Source: Bacillota bacterium (GTDB lineage Bacteria > Bacillota > Limnochordia > Limnochordales > ZCTH02-B6). From it: a stretch of DNA of 64,000 nt. The notes under the pieces were generated by a model, which was not told the DNA's origin, did no database searches, and was given only the letters and a program-made list of their open reading frames with translations. A program made the position numbers and the translations under genes. Shown here piece by piece: positions 47,871 through 62,533 of this stretch (positions within the stretch are counted from its first letter, which is position 1; every line of letters starts with the position of its first letter). Location: positions 11,047 to 75,046 of the forward strand of contig JACDOI010000007.1 of NCBI GenBank assembly GCA_017656145.1. Direction: 5' to 3'.

Positions 47871-48032
47871 GCCCAAATCCCTCATAGGTAGGCTCGAAAC
47901 GCTGTTCCGAGTGCACGTCAAGAGCAACAAAAAAAGGTTTCCATCCCTCATAGGTAGGCTCGAAACGGACGGCGAGCTGCACGTGACGCTCATCCGACCT
48001 ATGTTTCCATCCCTCATAGGTAGGCTCGAAAC
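47871..48032 (-). CRISPR. CRISPR array 1: 3 repeats, 2 spacers
   Basis: Repeat GTTTCCATCCCTCATAGGTAGGCTCGAAAC at 47937-47966 and 48003-48032. Degenerate outer copy GCCCAAATCCCTC... at 47871-47900. Both spacers are 36 bp. Strand is inferred from the degenerate repeat at the left end and the minus-strand repeat ending ATGGAAAC. Confidence 0.9.
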
Positions 48033-48217
48033 CAACCGAAAGCCCATGATGACGCCGTTTTTTCAGATCGGGTGCAACGCCCAGCACGTGCATCCAGAGA
48101 AGGACCCGATGCCCTCTCGTTCCCTTTATGACAGCGTTTGTCGCTTCTTGCAAGCTGTTGTCGACCCCCCGGGGCTTTTGCACGACCGGGGGTCGACAGC
48201 GCGGCTCAGAGCATCAG
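48033..48217 (-). promoter_or_regulatory. Array-flanking conserved region, copy 1 (putative leader)
   Basis: About three-quarters identical by eye to 51445-51627. Minus-strand promoter-like TTGCAA (48148-48153), 17 nt, CATAAA (48125-48130). GC hairpin at 48160-48197. Confidence 0.45.
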
Positions 48218-48486
48218 GTGGCCTGCGACTTCGGTACCCTATGTCGACCGCGCCACTGCACAGCGTGAGGAGGCCAACACCCTGGCCCTTGCCGAGCCGG
48301 CCAAAATTTGTTGATTCATCTTATCCTGTTCATCCCCCTTCCACCATTTGCAGGTTGTCTACCGGTTGCGCACCTGCGGGGAGATTTGGCCATACGGTCT
48401 CCCAATGCAAGCGCCACCATCGGCCATCGCGCTAGCGGTGCAAAACCGTCGTCGTTATGGCATAATCACCCCCGGAGGTGTCTGAG

Positions 48487-49533
48487 TTGTCACCAGCCCG
48501 CGATGACGCAGCGTCAGCCGCGCCCACTGAGTCCCAAGTATTTGACCTGATCATCGTTGGAGGCGGCCCGTGTGGACTAGCATGCGCGGTCGCCGCTCGC
48601 CGGCATGGGTTGTCCCATCTGATACTAGAGAAGGGGCCCTTTCTCAACACGTTGGTGCGCTTCCCGGAAACAATGAGCTTTTTCAGCTCGGCGGAACGGC
48701 TGGAAATTGGCGGCATCCCGTTTGCTCTGCCGCACTTGCGGCCGACCCGGGCCGAGGGTATCGCGTACTTTCACAAGGTCGCCCAGCGCGAGCAAGTCAA
48801 TCTCCACACCTATGAGCCCGTCACGGAGGTCACCGGCCGTTTCGGGGATTTCACCGTAACGACACTGGATCGCACGGGCCGCAGGCGGTTCTATCGCAGC
48901 CGCGCAGTCGTGATGGCCACCGGGTACTATGACAACCCCAACTTACTGGGCGTTCCGGGGGAAGAGCTGGACCACGTACTGCACCATTACGATCAACCGT
49001 ACCGGTATTTCCGCCAGCGGGTCGTCGTCATCGGCGCGGGCAACTCGGCAGCCCAGGTGGCCCTGGAGCTGTTCCGACACGGCGCCCACGTAACCCTCGT
49101 CCATCGCGGTCCGTCTATTTCTGACCACGTGAAGCCGTGGATCCGGCCTGATCTGGAAGCCCGCCTGCGAAACAACGAAATCCCGGCATACTTCGACACC
49201 GTGGTGGAACGCATCGAACGGGACCGGGTGCATCTAGTGCAAAAAGGCGACAGGCGATTTACTTTGCCGGCCGACTTTGTGCTGGCGATGACCGGGTACC
49301 GGGCCGACCATTCGCAGCTGGTAAAGCTCGGCGTGAACATCGATCCCGTCTCCGGCGCGCCCGTCTACGATCCGGATACGATGGAAACCAATGTGCCCGG
49401 ACTGTACTTGGCCGGCGTCATCGCCGGGGGCCACGAAGCGAACATCTTGATGATCGAAAACGGTCGGTTTCACGGTCCGAAAATCGCAGCGCATCTGGCC
49501 CGCAGGTTGTCAAGAAGAAGCTCAAAGCCTTGA
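48487..49533 (+). CDS. ypdA: YpdA-family FAD-dependent pyridine-nucleotide disulfide oxidoreductase (bacillithiol-system reductase family)
   Basis: FDLIIVGGGPCGLACA, ILEKGPFLNTLVRFPETMSFFSSAERLEIGG, VVVIGAGNSAAQ. TTG 48487 lies 8 nt after GGAGG; GTG 48478 is the alternative start. Confidence 0.8.
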   Translation: MSPARDDAASAAPTESQVFDLIIVGGGPCGLACAVAARRHGLSHLILEKGPFLNTLVRFPETMSFFSSAERLEIGGIPFALPHLRPTRAEGIAYFHKVAQREQVNLHTYEPVTEVTGRFGDFTVTTLDRTGRRRFYRSRAVVMATGYYDNPNLLGVPGEELDHVLHHYDQPYRYFRQRVVVIGAGNSAAQVALELFRHGAHVTLVHRGPSISDHVKPWIRPDLEARLRNNEIPAYFDTVVERIERDRVHLVQKGDRRFTLPADFVLAMTGYRADHSQLVKLGVNIDPVSGAPVYDPDTMETNVPGLYLAGVIAGGHEANILMIENGRFHGPKIAAHLARRLSRRSSKP

Positions 49534-49696: not shown

Positions 49697-50650
49697 TCAC
49701 CACGTCAGCGGACACAAGGAGCAGAGGTGCCTGGTGTCCCTGCCATATACCTGAGACTCAGACGATTCTTCCCGAACGGGCACTTGGGTCGGTGCAATGC
49801 TTGGGAAGGATGCCGATCTTGCCAGCGATTCCCGTGGAGCGCTCTGCTCTACCTCTGCCGAGACCTCGGCACGCTGTTGTCCGGCCTGCGACAGGATGCT
49901 TTCCGTTCCTGCCGTCGCTTCAGCAGCGGGTTTCGACCCCAGGCCTTCAGGAGCCTCAAGCGTTATTTGAGAAAGTTCCGGGCGAAAGCTCCTATTGATT
50001 AAGCTTGCTATACCTCCCGTCAGATGCGGAGAAAATAATTCCGAAATAAGAGCCCGAGGTTCTTCCTTCCAATCCCAGTCCGGCGGTGCGAAGCCAACCA
50101 CCAAGGCAAGGGCGACGGCCGTCGCACCGATGAGTCTGAAACCTTTCGTTGTTAAGGACCGAGCCCGACCTGTATGCCGCTCGGTACTCGAACCAATTGA
50201 GACAGTCAAAGTCCGCCGCGGTGCCGGTGTTTCAAATGGCCATCCGCCGCGCAGCCATTGAATCAACGCTCTACGATCGTACAAATAAACGCGTTTTCGG
50301 GCGAGCTCCCTTGCCCGTTTGGTAAAAGAAGAGTTTGTGATGACTCAGGCCTGGTCTGCTTCATAATACGACTGCGCCATGAAAACCTCTCGAACGGCCT
50401 GATTACCAACGGGTGTCCTTGACCGTTTCGCTTGCACAGCTATGCGCAGGCCGCGAACCGAGAGGATGAGGTCGGCTCCCTGATCTCCTCCCCTTTTCAG
50501 ACCAACATGCTCAACGTCAAAACCTTCTTCTTCGAACCGTTGTGCCAACCAAGCTTCGAATTCATGGCCTTCCATTGCGTAGATTTGTGAAAGCAACGAG
50601 TTGGGTGATGCAGCTGCCGTCGTTTTCGAGCGTGTCCGGCGAGGCACCAA
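49697..50650 (-). pseudogene. Mrr-type restriction endonuclease domain + TM + C-terminal domain protein, interrupted by an in-frame TGA
   Basis: ORFs 50345-50650 and 49697-50284 are in the same frame. Reading across TGA 50345-50347 gives ...AVQAKRSRTPVGNQAVREVFMAQSYYEADQA*VITNSSFTKRARELARKRVYLYDRRALIQWL, a contiguous Mrr_cat-like domain. Confidence 0.65.
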
Positions 50651-51011
50651 TATCAGGATTCACGCGATTAACGAACTGATCATGAACAATCAATATTCCA
50701 ATACTCTCTGACCGATAGTTCGCGAATCATCAATACAATAGCGAACCAAAGTGCGCGTAGCCGGACGTACAACACACGCGATCACGCCTCTCAGGCCCGC
50801 GTGTCCTCACGCGCCTAGTAGCTCACCTGGTAGCCCAAGAGTGTCTAGTGCTGCACGGCAAGTGCAGGGACAACCGCTATGAATCATCCCCTGCCCCATA
50901 ACAGCCAGCTCCTGCGAACTTGAGCTGCTCCGCGAGAAGGGGACTACGCTCGAAGCAAACGAATTCCGTGCACTAGGCTCTGGCAGATTACTTTCATCCC
51001 CGGCCGTGGGT

Positions 51012-51444
51012 CTTTCCATCCCCCATAGGTAGGCTCGAAACTGCATGAAATCGTGCTCGAAAGCCGGCCGTTTGTCGAGTTTCCATCCCTCATAGGTAGG
51101 CTCGAAACACTGTCTCTGGTGGTGGGCTCTGGATTACGCTCCCGAGTTTCCATCCCTCATAGGTAGGCTCGAAACCAAACGCAGATGAGAAGCCTGTTTC
51201 TGAGAATCCGACGTTTCCATCCCTCATAGGTAGGCTCGAAACTGCGCTGGATTTGGTGCCGGGTCGGCTCATGGGTGAGGTTTCCATCCCTCATAGGTAG
51301 GCTCGAAACCGGCCGAGGTTGTCGTCGAGGAGTGGGAGGCGCAGCTTGGTTTCCATCCCTCATAGGTAGGCTCGAAACCCGGACACTCGGCGATGATGCG
51401 CTTGATGGGGGCGGGTTTCCATCCCTCATAGGTAGGCTCGAAAC
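51012..51444 (-). CRISPR. CRISPR array 2: 7 repeats, 6 spacers
   Basis: Identical 30-bp repeats start at 51079, 51146, 51213, 51280, 51349 and 51415. The outer copy 51012-51041 has 2 mismatches. Spacers are 37, 37, 37, 37, 39 and 36 bp. Confidence 0.95.
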
Positions 51445-51627
51445 CAACCGAAAGCCTATGATGACGGCCTTTCTCCGATCGGGTGCGATACCCGGAACAT
51501 GCACCCCGGGAAGGGCTTGATGCCCTCTCGTTCCCTATATGATAGCCTTTGTCGCTTCTCGCGATCTGTTGTCGATCCCCCGGGGTTTTTGCCTCACCGG
51601 GGGTCGACGACGCGATTCAGAGCACAG
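51445..51627 (-). promoter_or_regulatory. Array-flanking conserved region, copy 2 (putative leader)
   Basis: Begins CAACCGAAAGCC like copy 1. Hairpin at 51571-51608. The -10-like CATATA (51536-51541) is kept, but the -35 position reads TCGCGA. Confidence 0.45.
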
Positions 51628-51715
51628 ATGGATATGAAGAGAGCCGGCTGCTAGTCATCGATTCATCTTCTCCCGCTCATCCCCCTTCCCCCATTTGCGG
51701 GTCGTCGTTCTTGCG

Positions 51716-51799
51716 CTGGAGAAGGTTCCGCTTCTCAATACACTGGTGCACTTCCCAGGGCGACCTCGTGCTGCCATGACCGGGTATCGAGCCGACCAC
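51716..51799 (+). pseudogene. Internally deleted remnant of a second ypdA copy
   Basis: CTGGAGAAGGTTCCGCTTCTCAATACACTGGTGCACTTCCCAG (LEKVPLLNTLVHFP) parallels ypdA codons for LEKGPFLNTLVRFP. It then jumps directly to AMTGYRADH, which in ypdA lies about 210 codons further on. Confidence 0.55.
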
Positions 51800-53108
51800 C
51801 GGCACATCGCCGAGGGGAGATTGAGATTTTCAGCGTTCGCGGAGCTTTGTACGCTAGGTAGGTTTGCGAAGGGCAATCATCCGAACGCCTCGATCAATTT
51901 CTCGATCGGAAGGGCCATCAGCCGGCGCTGCTCATCCAAGACTCATTCATAGTCCGACACCTGTCCGTTAAGCGGGATCAGGGGAATACAGTTCTCCTCG
52001 AAGTTTCGCCGGAGGTGGAGCAAAATATCCCGCACGGTGATGTGGTGGAAAGCAACCCACCGTCGCCAAGGCGGATTTGGGCTGCTTTGTAAGCGATGCA
52101 ATAAGGACTCATCGAGGAGAGGACTTGTCCATCTGTTGGGGCAACATGCCCGTCCAGAAGCTCTAAGGTAATTCACTCTCAATCACAGCCTCCACGCAAG
52201 TATGGACGAAGCCGCCTAGATACACCTCAAGAGCAAACAGGCCGCTGATATCGTCAATCCAGGCCAGTTTTTTGGCAATGGTGGGTTTGTGCACCTCGAA
52301 GCGCGTGCCCGGGAGCTCAGCGGGCGCGCCAGGGTATTTCCAACCTTTTCCCTGCGCTCCAAGCCCCGCTCCCAGGGACACTCGTGTACCAGGTTAGGGT
52401 TTCGGCAGCAATGTTCGTTCTCCTCATAATCCGCGCCCACTGCGACGCCCTCCGGTCATAGAGGGCATGACAAGCGTTCCCCGGGCTTGATGGCCTCAAC
52501 CAAAGCGCCAATCACTTCCCTGATTCCGCCTTTAACGGGGTGAATTGACCGACCAGTTGGCCTCGATCCACATGCGCCGCGCCGCAACCCTCCCTATTGA
52601 AAAGTTACACCACGATAACCCTTTGCGGACATGCATTCACGCTCAATACCAATCTCCTGGGTGAGACGGTCTGCACATGTTCCTCGCCATTCCAGTGCGT
52701 GACCGTCAATTTGACGGCTCAAGAACGGCGCGCTTGCTCACGGATGGTTCTCTGCCAGCTGTGCTTACTTCATAGGTACGGATACTAGCAGTTGGCATGT
52801 GACAGCCGTGCTATAGATGGCATTCGATTTTGAAGGATGCGTTAACTTTCTATCGAATAATTGGCTGAGCTCCGGCCACTCTGCGGTGGCGTCGACAGAC
52901 CACGAGAGTGGATAGCGTCTAAGAGCGGCAAGGTGCCTCGTACAACAACGGCGCCTTGAGCCCTTCCGACACGTTATGCGCGCTTCGTTCTCAGTACGGT
53001 TCGCTGTCGTCCACCTTTATGCCGGTATGTCGGGCAACGGTCCCTGGCCCACCAGGAAGGGCGCGGTACATTGCCATTGCCATTTCGTGCGACCGGGAGG
53101 CGTGACGG

Positions 53109-54104
53109 TTGCAAGAACGCGTCTACACGCTGACCGCTTTGACGGACATTTGGACAGGCTCGATTTCTTTGAGAGAAGACAAGAAGGGCGGCAGTGGGCA
53201 GGATTCAGTTCAGATTGTCCCTGACCGCCTTGTCACCACGGGTCTGCTCGGCTCTATCCGATGGTGGTTCGAAGTCCTCGTGCGCGGACTGGGTGGCGCG
53301 CCCTGCGGTCTGGATGATGAACCGGATACGAGGAAAGAACCTGATGAACCCGGTCATCACTGCGTTGTTTGCGAGCTGTTCGGCTGCACCGGCTGGGCGC
53401 GCAAGTTCCGCTTCGATGTCCTCGCGGAGGACGGGAAGGCACAACAGAACCAGATTACAAAGGATAATCCCTTCCGCATCCGGTTCACACCTTTACGACC
53501 AGTCCGTGATGAAGAGTGGGCACTCCTCGACCTGACCCTGCGGTTGATCGCCGATTACGGCGCGATCGGGGGCAAGACAAGTCTGAAGCCGAGTGGCGCA
53601 AAGAACCCAAAGCGTTACTTCCGTCCTCGCAACTTCGGTTTCGTACGCATCAAACATCGACCAAGCGTGCCAAGGCTGACTGAATACAGGCTCCGGGCGT
53701 ACGTAACCGACCCCCGATGGAGGTACCCCAAACAAGAAGGCTTCTCCTGGGCTTCGCTTGACCACGTTTGGTGTGTGAAGGCACGCTATCACGCGCGCCA
53801 GGATAGGACGAAAAGTACCTTCAATCGAGTGACCGAGCAGCCCGAGAAAGAATGGCGTTCAAGCCATGGTGACTCTCGTTTGGCCAGACGGGAGACTGGT
53901 TCAGAGGGTGATCGTGAACGTAAGAATGTCTTCAGCTTTAAGGAACCACAAGCACAACGGAGCTTCGGGTTTGTTCGGCATCCGAGGGAATTCGAGGCGA
54001 CACAGCAACTCTTGAGAGAGGTATGGAAAGACCTCAGAACCGATGACTTTCTCACCGGCGACGCCATCATCCGCAAGCTTTTCGATGAGGGTGGAAACGA
54101 ATGA
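53109..54104 (+). CDS. cmr1: Type III RAMP subunit, Cmr1-like (Cas7 group)
   Basis: TTG 53109 lies 8 nt after GGGAGG. GLLGSIRWWFEVLVRG (Cmr1-type GxxRxWFR), HHCVVCELFGCTGWARKFRF, and glycine-rich YGAIGGKTSLKPSG. Confidence 0.75.
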   Translation: MQERVYTLTALTDIWTGSISLREDKKGGSGQDSVQIVPDRLVTTGLLGSIRWWFEVLVRGLGGAPCGLDDEPDTRKEPDEPGHHCVVCELFGCTGWARKFRFDVLAEDGKAQQNQITKDNPFRIRFTPLRPVRDEEWALLDLTLRLIADYGAIGGKTSLKPSGAKNPKRYFRPRNFGFVRIKHRPSVPRLTEYRLRAYVTDPRWRYPKQEGFSWASLDHVWCVKARYHARQDRTKSTFNRVTEQPEKEWRSSHGDSRLARRETGSEGDRERKNVFSFKEPQAQRSFGFVRHPREFEATQQLLREVWKDLRTDDFLTGDAIIRKLFDEGGNE

Positions 54105-55063
54105 CTTACGACTTCTACAGCCATCTAGACAGCCGTGTTGACTCTCTGGCTCAAGAATGGCTACCAGAGGGTTTCATTGGATTTGCTAGTGGGTTCGTAG
54201 ACCTGTGCACTGTGGCGTCGGCCCGCGGAAATAGAGACAAGTCTGTGCAGGGGCGCAACAAGTCCAAAGACGGAGCTCGTGATATATACGTGCTCCGCAC
54301 GCTGCAACATATGCGAAAGCTGCGCGGACACCTGCCTGGATGGTTTACGGATTTGTTCGATGTCGAACCGCTCGCCCTCCATCCCGGCTGGCTGACGATC
54401 GACGTTTCGTTCACGCTCCAGACGCCTTGGTACTCCAAAGACGATCGGCCGTTCCATGTGCTTCACAACCCCGTGCGGAAAGAACGTCTTTTCGGCATTC
54501 CTTTCATGTCCGCAGCGAGCTGGAAGGGGTTGCTCCGCTGGTCGATGCAGATGACCCAGGGGTTGATCGGCCCTGAACCCATTGAAGACCGTCAAACGCG
54601 CGAGGTGGCTGCAGCAACGGTGCATCACCTCTTCGGCAACGAGAAAGGCGAAGACGAGCTTTTCCAAGCCGGTGCGCTTCGCTGCTACCCAACTTGGTTT
54701 TCGGCAATCGACTTCGAAGTCATCAATCCCCACAGTCGAAAGACGCGAGCCGGGACGAACCCCATTTACTACGAAGTTGTTCCGGCGAACACGAACGGTA
54801 GGTTACGTCTTCTGTATGCGCCGTTTCCCCGCCAAGCGGAGCACGACGGCGTCGATCCGATCTTCGCCTTGACGACCCTGTTCCACGCGATCGAAAGGCT
54901 CCTCACCCGCTACGGCTTCTCCGCGAAACGGACGGCCGGATGGGGGCTTGCGGAGGTCAACGGCTGGAAGGTCTCCGGTCACGGTGGCACAGAGTGCGGA
55001 ACGCGGGAACAGGTTACCTCGGCCCTGAAGCAGCTTCTTCGAGGAAGAAGGGACGCGCGGTGA
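54101..55063 (+). CDS. cmr6: Type III RAMP subunit, Cmr6-like (Cas7 group)
   Basis: GIPFMSAASWKGLLRW, HLFGNEKGEDELFQAGALRCYPTWF, and C-terminal YGFSAKRTAGWGLAEV G-rich loop. ATGA overlap with cmr1. Confidence 0.7.
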   Translation: MTYDFYSHLDSRVDSLAQEWLPEGFIGFASGFVDLCTVASARGNRDKSVQGRNKSKDGARDIYVLRTLQHMRKLRGHLPGWFTDLFDVEPLALHPGWLTIDVSFTLQTPWYSKDDRPFHVLHNPVRKERLFGIPFMSAASWKGLLRWSMQMTQGLIGPEPIEDRQTREVAAATVHHLFGNEKGEDELFQAGALRCYPTWFSAIDFEVINPHSRKTRAGTNPIYYEVVPANTNGRLRLLYAPFPRQAEHDGVDPIFALTTLFHAIERLLTRYGFSAKRTAGWGLAEVNGWKVSGHGGTECGTREQVTSALKQLLRGRRDAR

Positions 55064-58000
55064 ATGCGACTGGCAAGGACTTGGCGGAAAAGCTCAAGAG
55101 CTCACGAGCGCTGTTGCTCGCCTGCGAAACCATCGGCTGGCTCCATCAGACCGGGAAAGCCCACCCGGATTTCTTGCTCTCGCAAGGACGCGCTGGCGTC
55201 AAGTACACCCCGGAGGATTGGCATAAACAACTCGTCCCTGGCTGGAGCGATCGCCTCCGGTGGGTCAAAGAACGAACGGGAAAGAATGACATCGAATGGC
55301 CTGCTTCCCTAGAGGATTTTCTCTATAAATACAACAAGGCGGGAAGCGAGGATCTCGTCGGTTGCCTCCAAGCTGGCCACGCCATGGCTTCGGGGATCGA
55401 GAAGAGCAACTTCAGTGACAAGGCTTCAGAGTACCTGAAGCAGGACGCAACGCACATGTGGCTCACCAGCGCCTACGGCCGTCCCATGCGCAACCTCCTG
55501 GCCGATCCTCCCGAAGTACTTCGATCCGGCGGATGGGAAACGTTGCTCCAACGCATCGGCGCGCTCCTCGATCGATTAGAGAAGCTGGGCACCGAACGGC
55601 AGGGCGATGTGTATGAGTGGTGGAAATGGCGAGAAGACGCGATTGGCCAAGGCGGTTGGCTACGGCGCGCCTTTGAAGCCACTGTAGCGGATACACGATT
55701 GCCCAACAACGACGTCACCCTCTGGGATCAATCCTACGTCGCAGGCGCGCTTTTCAAGTCCGCCGTCGCGGGGCTGGTCTTGCTCGGTAAACCGCCGAAC
55801 GGTGCATGGGAAAAGCTCAAAACTAAGACCCGGTGGCGAGTGCTGACCGTCGGCTTCGGCACTGAGCACTATCAAGAACGGGCGGTGCGCATCGTCGACT
55901 GGACCGGTGCTGCGCAACAGATCGAAGCCTTCTTTGAAGACGTGCGGCGCTTGATCGAGGTCGAACTCGCGGTAGGTTCGCTCGTATATCGTGACGACCA
56001 AGTTCTAGCCTTCACCTTCCCGGGGCTGCGCTCCGACGACCAAGACCCTGGCCAAAAGAGCTTAGGGACTCACGCGGCCGAAGAGCTTCTCGAGTGGATC
56101 AAGAATCACGTCGACGAGCTAGCACAGCAGCGCTTGCTAGAAACACCGCCGTGGTGCTCGCTTTCTGAATCGACCCGTTCGTTCATCCCCATGGCGAATC
56201 AGGTCGCCGAAGCACGAAAAAAGCTAACCGTCCCCCTGCACCGCCCGTGGACGATCTCGGAAAAAGACGACAAGGAAGACAACAAAAGGAAACGAGGCGA
56301 CGTCTGCCCGGTCTGCCAGGTGCGCTTCAACGGAGGGGCCGGCGGTAAGGAAACCAGCCCGAAGCAACGACCGTGTCGCGTCTGTGGGGAGCGTCGCGAG
56401 AAGCGCTTAAAGGCTTGGTTGACGGAAGGTAAGGATACGATCTGGATTAGCGAGCTGGCCGACGACAACGACCGCGTCGCGCTGCTCACTTTCCGTTTCG
56501 ACCTCGGTCCCTGGCTCGACGGCTCCCGCACCGACTCATTAAGGACCCAATGCATCGCCGCGTGGCGCCGGCACAATCCGTCCGTGAATAATAATAAAGA
56601 TAATCCCATCGACTTAGACGACCCTACGGAAAGCTTGATGCAACACGTCAGGTCCGTCGTTCACAACCCGCGTAAGGTGACGTCCGTCAAACGGGCTGGA
56701 AATCTCGACGACGCCATCATGGCGTCACTCAATCAGGGGTTCTCCTATGACCAAGACCTCAGTGACTTCTACCACAGGATGGTCGAGGATCGCGCCGACG
56801 CTCCCCCACGTTGGGACGCGGTGAAGCACGATCCCGGACGCGCCGCCCATTGGCTTGTCCACCAAATCTTTCGGAAAAACCCGTCGCCTGGAAGAGTTTA
56901 CCGATTCTGGCGGACGGCAGAGGCTTTCTTCGACGAGCTGCTTCCCGTCTTCCGCGAAGCGGCGGCCGCCCATCAAAACCGCTGGCGGACTCGCCGGCTG
57001 CTCCTTGTTCCGGACAAGGCGAGTCAGGGCGGTTGGCAAGATCACGAGACCTACGCGACCCGGTGGAACGACGCGCCGCTTGAACTGCTTTATTGCGCGG
57101 AAAGCGAGAGCTTCCTTACCATCTGCAACCTGGCGCGCATCCTCCGTCCCGAAGAACAACCCCGGGAAAGGTTGAAAGGACTCCGTTTAGAGCTCGAGAG
57201 CGACAAAGGCGATCGGAGTACCCTAACGATTGGTAAAGTCTCCGTCCCCTCGAATCTGGGCTCCTATTCCCCGCTCATTGTTCTCGACCGCCGCCCTGAG
57301 CGCTTTCGAGTGCTCGTCCCGCTTCAAGCCGCGCCTGCCTGCATCGACGCGGCACTCAAGAAATGGCGCGACGAGTTCGCACCGGTGTGGGATCGCATGC
57401 CGCTTCGCTTCGGCGTGGTGGCCTTTTCCCGAATGACGCCCTTCCAGGCGGTCATCGAAGCGGCCCGGAATCTGGAAGACGCCCTCTCCGGTCCGGCGGA
57501 GGAAACGTGGAGTGTAATGGATTGTCAGGTGCGTAATGGCATCGCCGCGCTTCTCTTGATGCGGCGTGATGGAACCCGTGAGATCGTCACCGTTCCCACG
57601 GTGCTCCCCGATGGACGCGTCGACGAGCACTACCCTTATGTGGCCGTAACGAACCCGAGGCATCTGAGGAAGCGGGATTTCACCGTACCGCCCAGTGATA
57701 AGCGAGCGAAACAGACCTATCGGCACGTCCTCGACCTCACGCCCGGGGACGAGATTCTGGTTGCGCCGAGCCGTTTCGCCACCATGTTCTTGGCGAGTAC
57801 GGCAGACCGTTTCCACCCTGTCGATGTTCGTTATGTCTCCGAATGGGACAGAATGCGTGAGATTTGGCATCTTTTGTGCCGCACGGCGCCAAGCGTGACG
57901 TCGTTGCACACCCTTTGGTCGGCACTGGCTGACGTACGGGCGCGGTGGGAAGACCTGAAGCCACGACCGTCAGACCCACCGCCCTGGGCCTCATTGGTCC

Positions 58001-58137
58001 GATCCGTGCTCGCCGACACCTTGGGTGTTCGTCCGTCAGAGCTCGAAGTGCTCGTGGAAGCGGCCGTCTTCGGCATCTTGGAAAAGACCCTCGACTGGCA
58101 TCTGCGAATTCTCAAGCTGGAGGAATCGCCGTCATGA
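55060..58137 (+). CDS. cas10: Cas10/Cmr2-like large subunit with degenerate HD and cyclase motifs
   Basis: GTG 55060 (GTGA overlap) gives 1025 aa. LLLACETIGWLHQTGK in place of LLHDIGK; ADTRLPNNDVTLWDQS (Cmr2 DTRxP motif); CPVC-x19-CRVC zinc finger; PLRFGVVAFSRMTPFQAVIEAARNLEDA (post-GGDD strand-helix). No GGDD. Confidence 0.8.
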   Translation: MNATGKDLAEKLKSSRALLLACETIGWLHQTGKAHPDFLLSQGRAGVKYTPEDWHKQLVPGWSDRLRWVKERTGKNDIEWPASLEDFLYKYNKAGSEDLVGCLQAGHAMASGIEKSNFSDKASEYLKQDATHMWLTSAYGRPMRNLLADPPEVLRSGGWETLLQRIGALLDRLEKLGTERQGDVYEWWKWREDAIGQGGWLRRAFEATVADTRLPNNDVTLWDQSYVAGALFKSAVAGLVLLGKPPNGAWEKLKTKTRWRVLTVGFGTEHYQERAVRIVDWTGAAQQIEAFFEDVRRLIEVELAVGSLVYRDDQVLAFTFPGLRSDDQDPGQKSLGTHAAEELLEWIKNHVDELAQQRLLETPPWCSLSESTRSFIPMANQVAEARKKLTVPLHRPWTISEKDDKEDNKRKRGDVCPVCQVRFNGGAGGKETSPKQRPCRVCGERREKRLKAWLTEGKDTIWISELADDNDRVALLTFRFDLGPWLDGSRTDSLRTQCIAAWRRHNPSVNNNKDNPIDLDDPTESLMQHVRSVVHNPRKVTSVKRAGNLDDAIMASLNQGFSYDQDLSDFYHRMVEDRADAPPRWDAVKHDPGRAAHWLVHQIFRKNPSPGRVYRFWRTAEAFFDELLPVFREAAAAHQNRWRTRRLLLVPDKASQGGWQDHETYATRWNDAPLELLYCAESESFLTICNLARILRPEEQPRERLKGLRLELESDKGDRSTLTIGKVSVPSNLGSYSPLIVLDRRPERFRVLVPLQAAPACIDAALKKWRDEFAPVWDRMPLRFGVVAFSRMTPFQAVIEAARNLEDALSGPAEETWSVMDCQVRNGIAALLLMRRDGTREIVTVPTVLPDGRVDEHYPYVAVTNPRHLRKRDFTVPPSDKRAKQTYRHVLDLTPGDEILVAPSRFATMFLASTADRFHPVDVRYVSEWDRMREIWHLLCRTAPSVTSLHTLWSALADVRARWEDLKPRPSDPPPWASLVRSVLADTLGVRPSELEVLVEAAVFGILEKTLDWHLRILKLEESPS

Positions 58138-59144
58138 CCATTAGCCGAGTACAGAAGAGCTTCGTGTGTTACCGCCACCTCGGAATCGCTGTAGACCCCA
58201 TTCACGTCGGAACAGGCGGAACGCGCCTTGGGCGTGTGGACAACACGATCGTACGGGATCCTGCCACCAAGATTCCGAAGATCCCGGGTTCGAGCCTCGC
58301 AGGCGCGCTCCGAGCCTACGTCGCGATGGCCCAAGAGAATACACGCGATCCAAGTCAGCGAGAGAAGCCCTACTACCCGGATTGCGCGGGCCAAGGGCAG
58401 CCGCGCTCGGGTGGTTCGGATGGGCACTGCGGACAGCGTAACTGCCCGGTGTGCACCGTCTTTGGGTTCGCCCGCAGCAGTGGTGGCTCAAGCGGTTTCG
58501 CGGGTCTTGCGGCCTTCAGCGACATGCACCTTCTCCTCTTCCCTGTTCCGACGCGCGAGGGCCCGATGTGGATCACCTCGCCGAGTGCGCTCCAGCTCGC
58601 CGGAGCGGACGAAAGAATCGAAGAGGTCATCAAAGACGAGCACCGGGTCTACCGCCCAAAGGGCGGGGCAGGCTGCGTGAACCTGGGTTGGCTGATGCTT
58701 GAAGTTGAAGCGCTCGAAGTCGAGCTCGACGGCGCGTTGGACGGCGTTCCAGAGAACATTCGCAAACGCGTGGCGCTGGTCTCGGACAAGCTGTTCAGCC
58801 ACATCGTCAACAGCAACCTGGAGACCCGCACATCCGTCGCCATCGATGCCTCAACCGGCGCCGCACAGGACGGCGCCCTCTTCACCTACGAGGCCTTGCC
58901 GAGAGGCTCGGTGCTCCAGTGGGAGGTCACTTGCCGCTTCCCGGGGCATTTCAGCATCGACAACCAACCCCTTCAGGCAGTCCAGACGCCCGACGATGTC
59001 CACAACGTCGTAAAGAAAGGCTACCCCTACCTCGAAGCTCTCGGCATCGGCGGCATGACCACGCGAGGGATGGGCCGGCTGAGAGTGCTCGGTAATTCAG
59101 GCAGCGACGCCTACGCAGACGGGGCCCAGGGGGGTGAGGCATGA
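58134..59144 (+). CDS. cmr4: Type III backbone RAMP, Cmr4-like (Cas7)
   Basis: DPIHVGTGGTRLGRVDNTIVRDPATKIPKIPGSSLAGALRAY, CPVCTVFGF, C-terminal LGIGGMTTRGMGRL. ATGA overlap with cas10. Confidence 0.85.
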   Translation: MTISRVQKSFVCYRHLGIAVDPIHVGTGGTRLGRVDNTIVRDPATKIPKIPGSSLAGALRAYVAMAQENTRDPSQREKPYYPDCAGQGQPRSGGSDGHCGQRNCPVCTVFGFARSSGGSSGFAGLAAFSDMHLLLFPVPTREGPMWITSPSALQLAGADERIEEVIKDEHRVYRPKGGAGCVNLGWLMLEVEALEVELDGALDGVPENIRKRVALVSDKLFSHIVNSNLETRTSVAIDASTGAAQDGALFTYEALPRGSVLQWEVTCRFPGHFSIDNQPLQAVQTPDDVHNVVKKGYPYLEALGIGGMTTRGMGRLRVLGNSGSDAYADGAQGGEA

Positions 59145-59503
59145 TGCAAAACCTTGACATTCAATGCGCAACGTTGGCGGAAGAGTTGGGCCAGGGTGCG
59201 GACAAAGCACGCAAAAGCCTGTTGACGGATGGCCTCGGCGTTCTCCAAGACCAGGGGCTTTACGCCTTCTTCCTATTTCTGAAGGCAAGCACGAGGGGCA
59301 ACCCCCGAGCGGTAAGCGACGCTTGCGCGTCCTTTCTGAGGAAACACGGACTCTTGCCTGACTCGCAGGACGTGTTCGACGGATTGAAGACCCTTTGCAG
59401 CCAAATGGACGATCTCCTTTTCGCCCGTGAACTCCTGTTGCACGCGCTAGCCTACGCCCGTTACCATGCCCAGGTCAGTCAAGAAGGGGAGGCTCACCGG
59501 TGA
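59141..59503 (+). CDS. cmr5: Small subunit, Cmr5/Cas11-like
   Basis: 120 aa, predicted all-helical. Sits between cmr4 and cmr3 with 4-nt overlaps on both sides. Assigned by size and position only. Confidence 0.55.
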   Translation: MMQNLDIQCATLAEELGQGADKARKSLLTDGLGVLQDQGLYAFFLFLKASTRGNPRAVSDACASFLRKHGLLPDSQDVFDGLKTLCSQMDDLLFARELLLHALAYARYHAQVSQEGEAHR

Positions 59504-60429
59504 GCTGGCAACTATTTCGATGGGCGTGGCGACTTGAAGCCCCCGTGTTCGTGGGCGCACCGCCTGCGGGCTCTCTCAACCGCTGCCGTCTTTACATCCC
59601 GGCGAGGGCGGTTTGGGGCGCGCTCACCGCGGAGCGGGCACGGCTTGACCTCGGCATGAGCAACCGAGGCCTTGCCGCGTACCAAGACGTTGGAGAGGAG
59701 CTACGGCGCCACTTTCGCTTCACCTATCTCTACCCTGCCGAGCGCGTGGGCGAAGCGTGGCGGGCATGGCTGCCGACCTATGAGCCCCGACTCGGCCTTT
59801 GTTGGCAGCGCGAGGACCGATCCGCGGACGCGCCGGTTCCAGATCGCGTGTTCCGCTGTCGCCTGCTCCACACAAGGCCCGCAACCGCGATCGATCCCAA
59901 AAGCGATTCTGCCGCGTCGGGCTCATTGCGAGAGACCGAGTGTCTTGAGACGCGCTGGCGCGATGAACGAGGAGAGGACGCCGGGCCGGTGGCATTGGTC
60001 GGATACGTGTTTGCGAAGGAGTCGGCGGGAACGCCTTCACCCGGAATCGACCGTTTAACGCCGATTCGAAGGCTTTTCCTCGGCGGTGACACCCGCTACG
60101 GCTTAGGGCGCGTCAGCCGAAAAGCGCCAGACAGCGTGAATCCTGTGGACCGCGTCTTCGGGTGCCGCGTGGAGTTGGATGGAGAGGAGCCCGTAGTGCA
60201 TTCGAAGATCGCGCTCGCGCATGCGCTGGCAGAAGCCCAGATGTCCGGAGCGCTTGAGGTTGTAAGCGGTTGGGACTTTGGCCAGCAAACGACGTTGGAC
60301 AAGAAAGGGGCACCACTGTGGAGACCAGGATCACATGTCCGGGCATTCAACGGAAAGGGGCGGTTTCGAATCGATCCATGCGGGATTTGGCACCTTGAGG
60401 CTCCCGATCATTCCGCCGAGGCGCGCTAG
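59500..60429 (+). CDS. cmr3: Cas5-group RAMP, Cmr3-like
   Basis: GTG 59500 (GTGA overlap). RLEAPVFVGAPPAGSLNRCRLYIPARAVWGALTAE and LFLGGDTRYGLGRV G-rich loop. Confidence 0.65.
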   Translation: MSWQLFRWAWRLEAPVFVGAPPAGSLNRCRLYIPARAVWGALTAERARLDLGMSNRGLAAYQDVGEELRRHFRFTYLYPAERVGEAWRAWLPTYEPRLGLCWQREDRSADAPVPDRVFRCRLLHTRPATAIDPKSDSAASGSLRETECLETRWRDERGEDAGPVALVGYVFAKESAGTPSPGIDRLTPIRRLFLGGDTRYGLGRVSRKAPDSVNPVDRVFGCRVELDGEEPVVHSKIALAHALAEAQMSGALEVVSGWDFGQQTTLDKKGAPLWRPGSHVRAFNGKGRFRIDPCGIWHLEAPDHSAEAR

Positions 60430-60496
60430 GGAGTGCTGACCCAATGATCAGGTAGCGTCTTCGTTACCTCTGCAGATGGCGTGCGTGATCTCGGCA

Positions 60497-61052
60497 TCAC
60501 TGGATAAGTTGCCCCGAGGGGAAATACGCCCATTCACCTGCAAAGCTGCCGAGGTCGCGGGAGCTCCTGCCGCATCCCAGGGTCCCGACAAACGGTGTAT
60601 ACTGTGCTGTAAACCGTAATGGGCGAAAGCGTGCGCACGACCGCGACCGGCTCATAAGGGGTGTCCGCTCAACTTCTACGGCCTCCAGCCGGAACTGCGC
60701 TGGCCCGAAGCGGATGAGGGGGCCTGTGGACCACGCTGGCCGCAAACAAATCCACGAAGGATACCAAAGGGGACGTCACAACCAGCCCGGTAAACCGGAT
60801 CAGGTTCCTCCTCACCTCGCCTCGGGCCAGGAGCCGGGAGAAAGTGAACATCCACAGCGAACGCTTGCCATCCAGGATGCCGCGAGCGTGTACCCATCCG
60901 GCCAGGTCGCCGTTGAGGTGGCGGTAGATAAACCCTTGGATTAGGCTGTTGTATTGCACGGGTAATACCGCTTCTTCGGCTGCTGGCCGAAGGCGAAGCC
61001 GTAGTCGTACTGGATCCTCCGTTACGTCCTGGTACCGGAACTTGCCCAGCAT
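60497..61052 (-). pseudogene. cas6: cas6 remnant (multiple frame changes, 3'-truncated)
   Basis: Frame 1 (61052-60669): VRLRLRLRPAAEEAVLPVQYNSLIQGFIYRHL...WMFTFSRLL, a Cas6 N-terminus. Frame 2 continues GPLIRFGPAQFRLEAVEVE. Frame 3 (60668-60534) holds VAVVRTLSPITVYST. There is no room for a C-terminal G-rich loop before the cmr3 stop. Confidence 0.65.
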
Positions 61053-61118
61053 CCGATGATGCTGCCGATTGAAACCATTATTATCTCAACGGCGAAAACG
61101 CCCATGGGCTTTCCCTTG

Positions 61119-62533
61119 TTATACCGCATGGATCCCATCTCGGTCTTGAGCTTCCGGCTCCTCGGCGTCGGCGAACGAGCCTGTGAGGTCTACCACACCG
61201 CACCCCTTCGGATCCCAGCGCACCTTCGTGCCGTAAGGCTTGGAAAGCTCCGCGAGATGCCTGATGATGGCCTCAGCCCTCTCCGGACCGGCGAGCGACG
61301 GCCTGCCCCGGGCGGGACGAGACAATTGAAACCCGAGCTCGACAGGATACAGTTCGATCTTTGTCAAATGCCCGTCATCCCATGTGCACAGCGCCACGAC
61401 AGATTCCCAATACCGGCGCTCTGACGGAAACCCGCGGGTGTCATTCTTGCTGCGGGCATCGAAGAGATCGGCGACGGTCGCTTCCGGGCCCAAACCGAGG
61501 CGTTCGTAGAAGTCCGCGGGTTGATGACGAACGGTTTCATTTTGGAAGATGAAGTTGCCGAGACTGTAGAAGATGGGGGCTCCCTTGTAAATCTCTATAC
61601 CCCGCAGCACATGAGGTCCGTGGCCGATTACCGCATGGGCGCCTTCATCGATACACGCCCTTGCCACGGTCTCGATGAATTCAGCCGCTCGTTCCAGATC
61701 GGAACCCTTTGCCTCATGGGCATGAATGCTGACAAACACCCAATCCGCCTGCCGACGCGCCTCTCGGATGGCTCGGAGATTTCCCTCCAGGTCGCCCGCA
61801 TGGGGTGTCGTCACCACCTTGGGCGTCTCGCCTACCACGAAGCGCCGGCCTAGAAACGTTATCGTTCCTTCGGGGTCCGGCTTTCGGAATCCCAGACGGA
61901 TCCTGAGCCGATGTTCCGCGCCCAGATCGAGCTCCTCGTCGAGCTTTTGCAGGAACTGAAACTGATCCGGTGTCACCTGGATAGTGGTCTCGTATCGCTG
62001 GGGGTTCAGACCCGGTCTACCCTGAAGGTCGGGACGGCTGTTTCCCGCCCGGTTGAATTCATTGAACGTGGAGCACATCGCTACCAACCCGACGCGGCCA
62101 GCATCAAGTTCCAGGTATGCCGGACGGCGGGCCTCCGCCAGATTGCGGCCGACCCCGGCATGAACGGCCCGGCCTCCTCCAGCGTCTTCATGGTGGCGAA
62201 CAGCCCGCCCTCGCCCCAGTCGAGGGTGTGGTTGTTAGCCCAAGCGTAAAGGTTAAAGGACATCCACTGAAGTTCTCGGAAAATCGAGGGATGGGCGCAC
62301 ACCCACGTGCCGCCGCTCTCCGCCTGAGGGTATCCTTCGAACTTGTGAAAGAGCATCTCCATGTTGGTAAACCGCACGTCCGCGCCCAAAAGAATCTCCC
62401 TAAGGCGCAGAAACGCCGGTTCGGTAAAGCAAGACAGCCGCTGCGTGATCAGGCTGTCCCCTGTCGCCGCCAAAACCAGCCTTCCCCGCCGCGGATGGAC
62501 CATAGGCGTAAACCTCCCGGTGCTGCTACCCAT
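61119..62533 (-). pseudogene. CapA-family (PGA_cap metallophosphatase-like) gene with a frameshift
   Basis: Upstream ORF: [10 protein letters not shown]...NLYAWANNHTLDWGEGGLFATMKTLEEAGP. A frame change at about 62166 restores VHAGVGRNLAEARRPAYLELDAGRVGLVA and joins the downstream ORF (HAVIGHGPHVLRGIEIYKGAPIFYSLGNFIFQ). Confidence 0.65.

Follow-up and report, generated by a model that had tools for sequence, protein, structure and literature searches.

The window analysed here, a 64,000-nucleotide stretch of DNA from a Bacillota metagenome-assembled genome (MAG), carries at positions 53109–60429 an operon of six genes that is a genuine type III-C CRISPR-Cas effector module. This assignment is supported by profile matches for all six predicted proteins and by a gene order that is constant among complete related loci. 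By homology with solved type III complexes, the six genes very probably encode a Cmr-like III-C effector complex that would cleave RNA, and whose large subunit, Cas10, would have neither cyclase nor HD activity.

The six-gene effector operon

The operon consists of six intact open reading frames (ORFs) on the plus strand that together span 7.3 kb, each closed by one terminal stop. The first gene, cmr1 (53109–54104, 331 amino acids (aa)), begins with TTG behind a GGGAGG ribosome-binding site and, like cmr6 (54101–55063, 320 aa, ATG start), encodes a RAMP protein of the Cas7 group. These are followed by a cas10 gene of the Csx11/Cas10c type (55060–58137, 1025 aa, GTG start); by cmr4 (58134–59144, 336 aa, ATG start), which specifies the backbone Cas7 RNase subunit; by cmr5 (59141–59503, 120 aa, ATG start), whose product is helical and corresponds to the Cas11 small subunit; and by cmr3 (59500–60429, 309 aa, GTG start), which encodes a Cas5-group subunit. 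An initial annotation of the window, made from its letters and a list of its ORFs, had proposed six consecutive plus-strand genes at these positions and had picked out the peptides GSIRWWFEVL, SWKGLLRW and LFG...GALRC as signatures; all of the reading frames were recovered, and all of the peptides occur in the translations.

Profile typing recognises all six families, as expected of the III-C-like module that the initial annotation proposed, and two of the subunits match models specific to III-C. The large subunit matches the PADLOC Cas10c model (PDLC01314, 'CAS-III-C; effector_LS') with an E value of 4.7e-120 over residues 10–1019, and scores 297.8 bits against the NCBIfam equivalog Csx11, TIGR02682, for which the cut-off is 248.95. 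Cmr5 covers the whole of the PADLOC profile PDLC01471 ('CAS-III-C; effector_SS') at 2.3e-26. Cmr1 is identified by NCBIfam TIGR01894 (44.6 bits; cut-off 28.65), by the Pfam RAMPs family (3e-16) and by the PADLOC Cmr1 model for III-B/III-C (5.5e-9), and Cmr4 by TIGR02580 (110.4 bits; cut-off 87) and PADLOC Cmr4 (5.9e-48). The remaining two proteins are typed by PADLOC: Cmr6 by PDLC00988 (1.9e-62) and PDLC01535 (III-B/III-C, 1.3e-61), and Cmr3 by PDLC00979 (1.5e-71) and PDLC01478 (III-B/III-C, effector_G5, 5.1e-66). Neither Cmr5 nor Cmr3 has a match among Pfam or NCBIfam profiles, and Pfam detects a generic RAMP domain alone, in three of the six proteins. According to the PADLOC typing the Cmr-type set is complete, with Cmr1, Cmr4 and Cmr6 as Cas7 proteins, Cmr3 as Cas5 and Cmr5 as the Cas11 small subunit.

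The locus is not new. Its proteins already have GenBank entries, MBO8141203–MBO8141208, which derive from a MAG labelled Firmicutes/Bacillota bacterium. Three of these entries bear CRISPR names; in gene order they read Cmr1 (MBO8141203), hypothetical, Csx11, Cmr4, hypothetical and hypothetical.

Related loci were collected by scanning with the Cas10c profile, one genome being kept per species. The resulting 80 loci come from Acidobacteriota, Chloroflexota, Myxococcota, Planctomycetota, Thermodesulfobacteriota, Bacillota and other phyla. The order cmr1-cmr6-cas10-cmr4-cmr5-cmr3 is that of the III-C reference locus, MTH328–MTH323, and it was on this ground that the initial annotation had called the order that of III-C. 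The same order is found in every one of the 53 related loci that are complete. It is also consistent with published descriptions of the reference locus, from Methanothermobacter thermautotrophicus (PMC8036902), in which MTH326 is an inactivated Cas10 and MTH323 a protein of the Cas5 group (PMC3150331).

Each of the five junctions is a 4-nt start/stop overlap, as had been noted initially: ATGA at 54101–54104, GTGA at 55060–55063, ATGA at 58134–58137, ATGA at 59141–59144 and GTGA at 59500–59503. The longest ORFs of cas10 and cmr4 begin further upstream, at 54940 and 57945. The overlapping starts of these two genes are backed by independent gene prediction on a Logan contig with this sequence, which yields identical 4-nt overlaps, and agree with the GenBank protein lengths and with the N-terminal alignment of homologues. 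A 4-nt overlap is possible at junctions 1 to 5 in 53/66, 53/76, 33/65, 27/62 and 50/62 of the related loci (44–80%), and all five are available in eight further related loci. The overlaps are not due to chance, yet they are a family-wide trait rather than a peculiarity of the locus in the window; coupled translation is usual in the family.

The subtype had initially been described as rare and experimentally almost uncharacterised. The first description is apt relative to III-A and III-B but not otherwise: a search with the Csx11 profile matches 1,163 clusters (50% identity) at E ≤ 1e-3 and 694 at E ≤ 1e-30, and Cas10c homologues fall into at least 655 clusters at 90% identity among the candidates scored. 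The second description stands. There is no solved III-C structure among the fold matches, and no experimental paper on CRISPR type III-C was found in the literature searched. The phrase 'type III-C' in PMC12676376 denotes CBASS and in PMC11090510 subtypes of CoCoNuT; neither concerns CRISPR.

Cas10c and the predicted output of the complex

When the alignment profile of Cas10c was searched against the PDB, no match was obtained at E values up to 1, and fold comparison was therefore used. The failure of the sequence profile fits the literature, in which III-C Cas10 is said to be extremely diverged (PMC6013697). AlphaFold2 gave a confident model of the protein, with a predicted local distance difference test score (pLDDT) of 85.4 and a predicted template-modelling score (pTM) of 0.86. 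The top Foldseek matches to this model are full-length Cmr2 of a III-B complex (6s8e_K) and full-length Csm1 of a III-A complex (6ifn_A), with E values of about 1e-7. As modelled, Cas10c has the Cas10 fold, with an HD-like N-terminal domain, a zinc finger, two palm domains and a helical C-terminal domain.

Along the chain, an HD-like N-terminal domain that reads HQ in place of HD is followed by a CxxC...CxxC zinc finger and then by a palm hairpin that lacks GGDD. The palm hairpin, where active cyclases have their GGDD site, reads LDRRPERFRV (IVLDRRPERFRVL) in the window, and the clade consensus at this position is L-D/E-x-S-P-x-R-F-R. None of the 180 clade sequences has GGDD there; stray GGDD-like strings occur in 23 of the 180 relatives, at unrelated positions. 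At the HD position the window protein has H29-Q30, and 179 of the 180 clade sequences have H-M. The accompanying motifs are H107..S111..E114-K115 and D223-Q224, corresponding to D..DSG.DKG and WDHS in the HD-bearing branch of Csx11. Thus neither the His-Asp dyad nor the accompanying Asp/His metal ligands were found in the N-terminal domain of Cas10c (residues 20–36, 101–116 and 209–227). The zinc finger retains its conserved cysteines, C416, C419, C439 and C442.

In the wider Csx11 superfamily, of which 112 full-length representatives were compared, the HD-like domain exists in two covarying states. About 46 sequences have the canonical state, LLHDxGK / CDxxDSGxDKG / WDHS, and about 60 have the replaced state, WLHMxGK / AHGxxSGxEKG / WDQS, to whose branch the window protein belongs. 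These two states fit the published account in which only half of III-C loci have an HD domain and none has a cyclase active site (PMC11229360); the same account gives no known ancillary effectors for III-C loci. In the clade of the window protein, E23, H29, K33, Q104, H107, E114, K115, D223 and Q224 are invariant in all 180 sequences. Because the replacing residues are invariant, the HD-like domain of the clade is constrained rather than decaying.

Since GGDD is absent, the large subunit, unlike that of III-A and III-B, would be unable to make cyclic oligoadenylate. With the HD dyad absent as well, neither of the usual outputs of Cas10 is expected, and sequence-specific RNA cleavage is the sole catalytic output that can be predicted. 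The likely site of cleavage lies in Cmr4, which has the motif GRVDNTIVRDP with D36; at least 90% of 58 homologues share this motif in the form GRVDxxIVRDP. Residue D36 presumably aligns with the catalytic Asp26 of Pyrococcus furiosus Cmr4. The conserved aspartate motif and the presence of adjacent CRISPR arrays are indirect signs of an RNA-guided complex that would bind and cleave target RNA.

The mechanism envisaged for the module draws on homology with the solved III-A and III-B complexes. The start/stop overlaps would keep synthesis of the subunits coupled, and the two adjacent arrays, with their 30-nt repeats, would supply the guides. Because the neighbouring cas6 is a pseudogene, processing of the CRISPR RNA (crRNA) would depend on a Cas6 from another part of the genome. 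Cmr3, the Cas5 protein, and Cas10c would together bind the crRNA at its 8-nt repeat-derived tag. Copies of Cmr4 would form the backbone along the guide, with Cmr6 and Cmr1 as a cap, and copies of Cmr5 would form the minor filament. A complementary transcript would be bound and then cut every 6 nt by D36 of Cmr4.

The locus is a further bacterial example of a subtype that has been defined in classification and has neither published biochemistry nor a solved structure. As a compact, intact and fully coupled operon of six genes with adjacent arrays, it would lend itself to cloning as a test case. How a type III system defends its host when Cas10 can neither signal nor cut DNA is a wider puzzle. 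Two handles on this puzzle are the residues that invariably replace the HD motif in the clade and the frequent embedding of the module in Hma operons, described below; both concern the family, not the window.

CRISPR arrays, surroundings and the question of decay

Two short arrays lie upstream of the operon. The nearer, array 2 (51012–51444), is 1.7 kb away; its seven repeats are 30 nt long, reading GTTTCCATCCCTCATAGGTAGGCTCGAAAC on the plus strand, and its six spacers measure 36–39 nt. Array 1 (47871–48032), 5.1 kb upstream, has three repeats and two spacers. Only 5 of the 80 related loci have an array within 10 kb. The repeats score 40 bits against the Rfam family CRISPR-DR2 (RF01315), for which the gathering score is 37; Rfam orients the repeat on the plus strand, and this was not counted as evidence for the direction of transcription.

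The features of the arrays that bear on direction point both ways. The leftmost repeat is degenerate in each, with 2 mismatches in array 2 and 5 in array 1. The right flanks are conserved: the sequence at 51445–51706 is about 80% identical, by blastn, to 48033–48221 plus 48313–48359, so that some 190 nt and 47 nt are shared at 80% identity, and the spacers adjoining these flanks differ. Degenerate left repeats together with a conserved right flank suggest a leader on the right and transcription from the minus strand, opposite to the effector operon; on this reading 51445–51706 is a putative leader. Read on the minus strand, the repeat is GTTTCGAGCCTACCTATGAGGGATGGAAAC and its tag would be AUGGAAAC, which resembles the AUUGAAA[C/G] tags that go with Cas6b-type repeats; the plus-strand reading would give the 8-nt 5' tag CUCGAAAC.

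The one protospacer match points the other way. Spacer 8, the rightmost of array 2 (51379–51414), matches two IMG/VR viral contigs from metagenome 3300009854, with 32/36 (29 contiguous) and 31/36 identical positions; the protospacers lie at 699–734 of contig L083 and at 2238–2273 of contig L084. The match is antisense to a gene for a P-loop kinase-like protein (motif GPRGTGKTT...APIKRIIAEAP), and pairing of the spacer 8 crRNA with the phage mRNA would therefore need transcription from the plus strand. The balance leans towards the minus strand, since a single protospacer is weak evidence for the plus strand. The eight spacers, searched as a concatenate, gave no match among 50,697 phage records, and the 22-nt cores of the other seven gave none in IMG/VR. 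A promoter and terminator scan of 47.6–53.3 kb returned counts at the level of shuffled sequence and was of no help on orientation. Both array flanks also contain a GC-rich inverted repeat, GTCGAyCCCCCGGGG ... CCGGGGGTCGAC, with a loop of about 10–13 nt (48157–48197 and 51570–51608), which could be a terminator or a protein-binding site.

On its other side the operon converges with a cas6 pseudogene on the minus strand (60594–61010). It matches the PADLOC Cas6b profile at 2.1e-17 over profile positions 2–92 of 235. When full-length Cas6 proteins of three related III-C loci were compared with it by tblastn, the alignment ran through an in-frame stop near 60666–60668 and broke off near residue 150 of about 258; roughly 100 C-terminal residues, including the G-rich loop region, are therefore missing. 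In three related loci (L062, L066 and L078) intact Cas6 homologues are encoded directly upstream of cmr1. Searches by tblastn with Cas1, Cas3 and Cas6 of related loci found this pseudogene only; no cas1, cas2, cas3 or second cas6 was found in the window. Nor was a CARF gene or other ancillary effector gene found near the operon.

Further out, a fragment of an Mrr_cat restriction endonuclease (101 aa) lies on the minus strand at 50345–50650, and a CapA-like PGA_cap gene, also on the minus strand (61119–62533), is broken into two ORFs with a 7-nt overlap; the split is present in an independent Logan assembly as well. The 1.4 kb between 51700 and 53108 has no credible genes and no ORF longer than 85 aa. 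An intact gene for a pyridine-nucleotide disulphide oxidoreductase, of housekeeping type, lies between the two arrays (48478–49533). The GC content is 0.55–0.60 across 50–62 kb (50001–62000), compared with 0.64–0.68 in the rest of the window, a drop that is consistent with a horizontally acquired island.

From the intactness of the six ORFs among broken neighbours, the initial annotation had argued that the module is under selection. The neighbours are indeed broken, as the cas6 pseudogene, the Mrr_cat fragment and the split PGA_cap gene attest. The argument for selection fares less well: intact ORFs are weak evidence for it, and Cas10c and Cmr1 deviate at near-invariant positions more than do most of their relatives. 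The comparison was made by counting deviations in alignment columns with a conservation of 97% or more, in place of calculating the ratio of nonsynonymous to synonymous substitution rates (dN/dS). The latter was unsuitable because the nearest homologues have only about 64% protein identity and synonymous sites would be saturated. Cas10c deviates at 5 of 178 columns (M30Q, E211D, E272Q, G279V and H414D) and ranks 17th of 180 sequences. Cmr1 deviates at 5 of 53 columns (W257R, G260R, S271R, K273N and T285S) and ranks 2nd of 54; all five changes fall within the conserved C-terminal motif WLAG..ESKKVFSFK..RTFGF (residues 257–285). The other subunits are unremarkable, with one deviation among 78 columns in Cmr4 (V231T) and none in Cmr6, Cmr3 or Cmr5.

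Several of these observations weigh against the reading of the operon as a working RNA-cleaving effector. The cas6 gene beside it is a pseudogene, and the window is without cas1 and cas2. The arrays have few spacers (2 and 6), and the evidence on their direction is in conflict. The Cmr1 changes are concentrated in one motif, and two of the Cas10c changes, M30Q and H414D, are unique among the 180 sequences, the latter lying beside the zinc finger. Taken with the dead cas6, these deviations possibly reflect early erosion or lineage-specific drift. From a different direction, the HD-like domain may have another activity rather than none, the replacing residues being invariant. Finally, no data on expression or activity of this locus or of any III-C system were found in the literature searched.

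It is possible, though not probable, that the module is a decaying relic: having come on the lower-GC island, it would have lost Cas6 and any adaptation genes and would provide no immunity now, its ORFs being intact since little time has passed. The truncation of cas6, the fragmentary or split Mrr_cat and PGA_cap neighbours, the ORF-poor stretch at 51.7–53.1 kb, the tiny arrays, the unusual changes in Cas10c and Cmr1, and a GC content below the value of about 0.65 found elsewhere would all be accounted for. This explanation must contend, however, with six ORFs that are uninterrupted over 7.3 kb and five coupled junctions that have been kept. Cmr6, Cmr3 and Cmr5 show no excess of deviations, and the catalytic motif of Cmr4 and the zinc finger of Cas10c are intact. 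Moreover, type III modules commonly use Cas6 and adaptation genes encoded elsewhere (PMC8036902), and the window is part of a genome; most related III-C loci are likewise without a nearby cas6 or array. An effector complex that cleaves RNA, served by a Cas6 from elsewhere in the genome, is the preferred reading.

Related loci and known systems

Clustering of the ORFs that flank the 80 related loci reveals three recurrent non-cas neighbours: an SNF2-type helicase with NOV_C, a DUF1156 methyltransferase and a DUF499 ATPase. PADLOC types these as HmaA (helicase, 1.4e-173), HmaB (methylase, 2e-99) and HmaC (ATPase, 2.5e-91). The III-C module has Hma genes of the same strand directly beside it or around it, and the gene ends often overlap, in 18 of the 80 loci (L002, L004, L006, L008, L009, L010, L016, L022, L023, L028, L032, L036, L039, L040, L044, L050, L059 and L072), and in 15 of the 60 that have at least 3 kb of flank. 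The arrangement hmaB-cmr1-cmr6-cas10-cmr4-cmr5-cmr3-hmaC, with overlapping junctions, is seen in two further loci, L085 and L086, which at about 62% Cas10 identity are among the closest relatives examined. The module is directly upstream of hmaC in L085–L087, and in L089 Hma genes lie about 3.5 kb upstream. No report of a link between III-C and Hma was found in the literature searched (bioRxiv 10.1101/2024.01.29.577857, the PADLOC paper and a 2026 DUF499-centred analysis).

Small gene pairs of nucleotidyltransferase/HEPN-like type recur beside III-C and Hma genes (L008, L018, L027, L039, L048, L059 and L069); those of L008 and L059 are placed between hmaB and hmaC. Other related loci are near Cas3 (8) or Cas1 (7), and some stand alone. 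Methylacidimicrobium sp. AP8 (L088; LR797830.1), whose genome is complete, has its III-C module flanked by a divergent type I-G effector/Cas3 cluster on one side and by Cas4-Cas1/Cas2 on the other, and may provide a route to testing III-C function.

The Hma neighbourhood raises another alternative, which seems unlikely: that the III-C complexes of the clade are RNA-guided sensors whose output is delivered through a restriction-like partner defence system, most often Hma, or by way of an HD-like pocket put to a new use. In that case the window would contain an Hma-free, array-attached variant that lost its partner or never had one. The abutting or enclosing Hma genes with their overlapping ends, the placement of the module between hmaB and hmaC in two of the closest relatives examined, and the HD-replacing residues, invariant in the clade and covarying as a set across the superfamily, would all be in keeping with such a role. 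Embedding need not mean cooperation, however, because Hma hosts many unrelated embedded defence genes (bioRxiv 10.1101/2024.01.29.577857), and other relatives adjoin type I-G cas genes or stand alone. In the window itself there is no Hma gene or remnant, as tblastn with HmaB and HmaC of the closest relatives gave nothing above noise. Direct cleavage of RNA by the Cmr4 backbone is the more probable output of the complex in the window.

It is extremely improbable, and effectively refuted by profile typing, that the module is a mislabelled type III-B (Cmr) system signalling by cyclic oligoadenylate as in Pyrococcus or Thermus: PGAP does name Cmr1 and Cmr4 'type III-B CRISPR module RAMP protein', the RAMP profiles are common to III-B and III-C, and the best structural match is III-B Cmr2, but the large subunit matches Csx11/Cas10c models with no match to a Cmr2 profile, its sequence profile finds no Cas10 in the PDB, GGDD and nearby CARF or ancillary effector genes are absent, and the gene order differs from cmr1-cas10-cmr3-cmr4-cmr5-cmr6.

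The likeness to III-B is real at the level of the subunits. The Cmr systems of Pyrococcus furiosus (PF1130–PF1124) and Sulfolobus islandicus (Cmr-beta, PDB 6s8e) are built from the same families, Cmr1, Cmr3–Cmr6 and Cas10; the catalytic aspartate motif of Cmr4 is common to both, and the predicted fold of the window Cas10 superposes on Cmr2. The two differ in gene order and in the GGDD motif, HD dyad and nearby CARF gene that the window lacks. Type III-F resembles the window module in having a Cas10 without cyclase motifs and no ancillary effectors (PMC11229360), but generally keeps the HD nuclease, which the clade does not. In type III-E, as predicted here, Cas7-type RNA cleavage is the main predicted activity; III-E is, however, a single fused protein without Cas10, whereas the window encodes six subunits. 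The Hma and DUF499-centred BREX-related systems (PMC8565338, PMC12839542), although the commonest recurrent non-cas neighbours of the clade, are a different kind of defence and are absent from the window.

The closest counterpart is the III-C reference, MTH328–MTH323, compared here by description. The six families and their order are alike, as are the Csx11-type Cas10 and its inactivated cyclase palm, and the absence of an HD dyad is common to about half of III-C systems (PMC11229360). The hosts differ, being a methanogen in one case and a Bacillota MAG in the other. What sets the copy in the window apart is HQ where the clade has HM, the H414D change, and the cas6 pseudogene and two short arrays that lie beside the operon.

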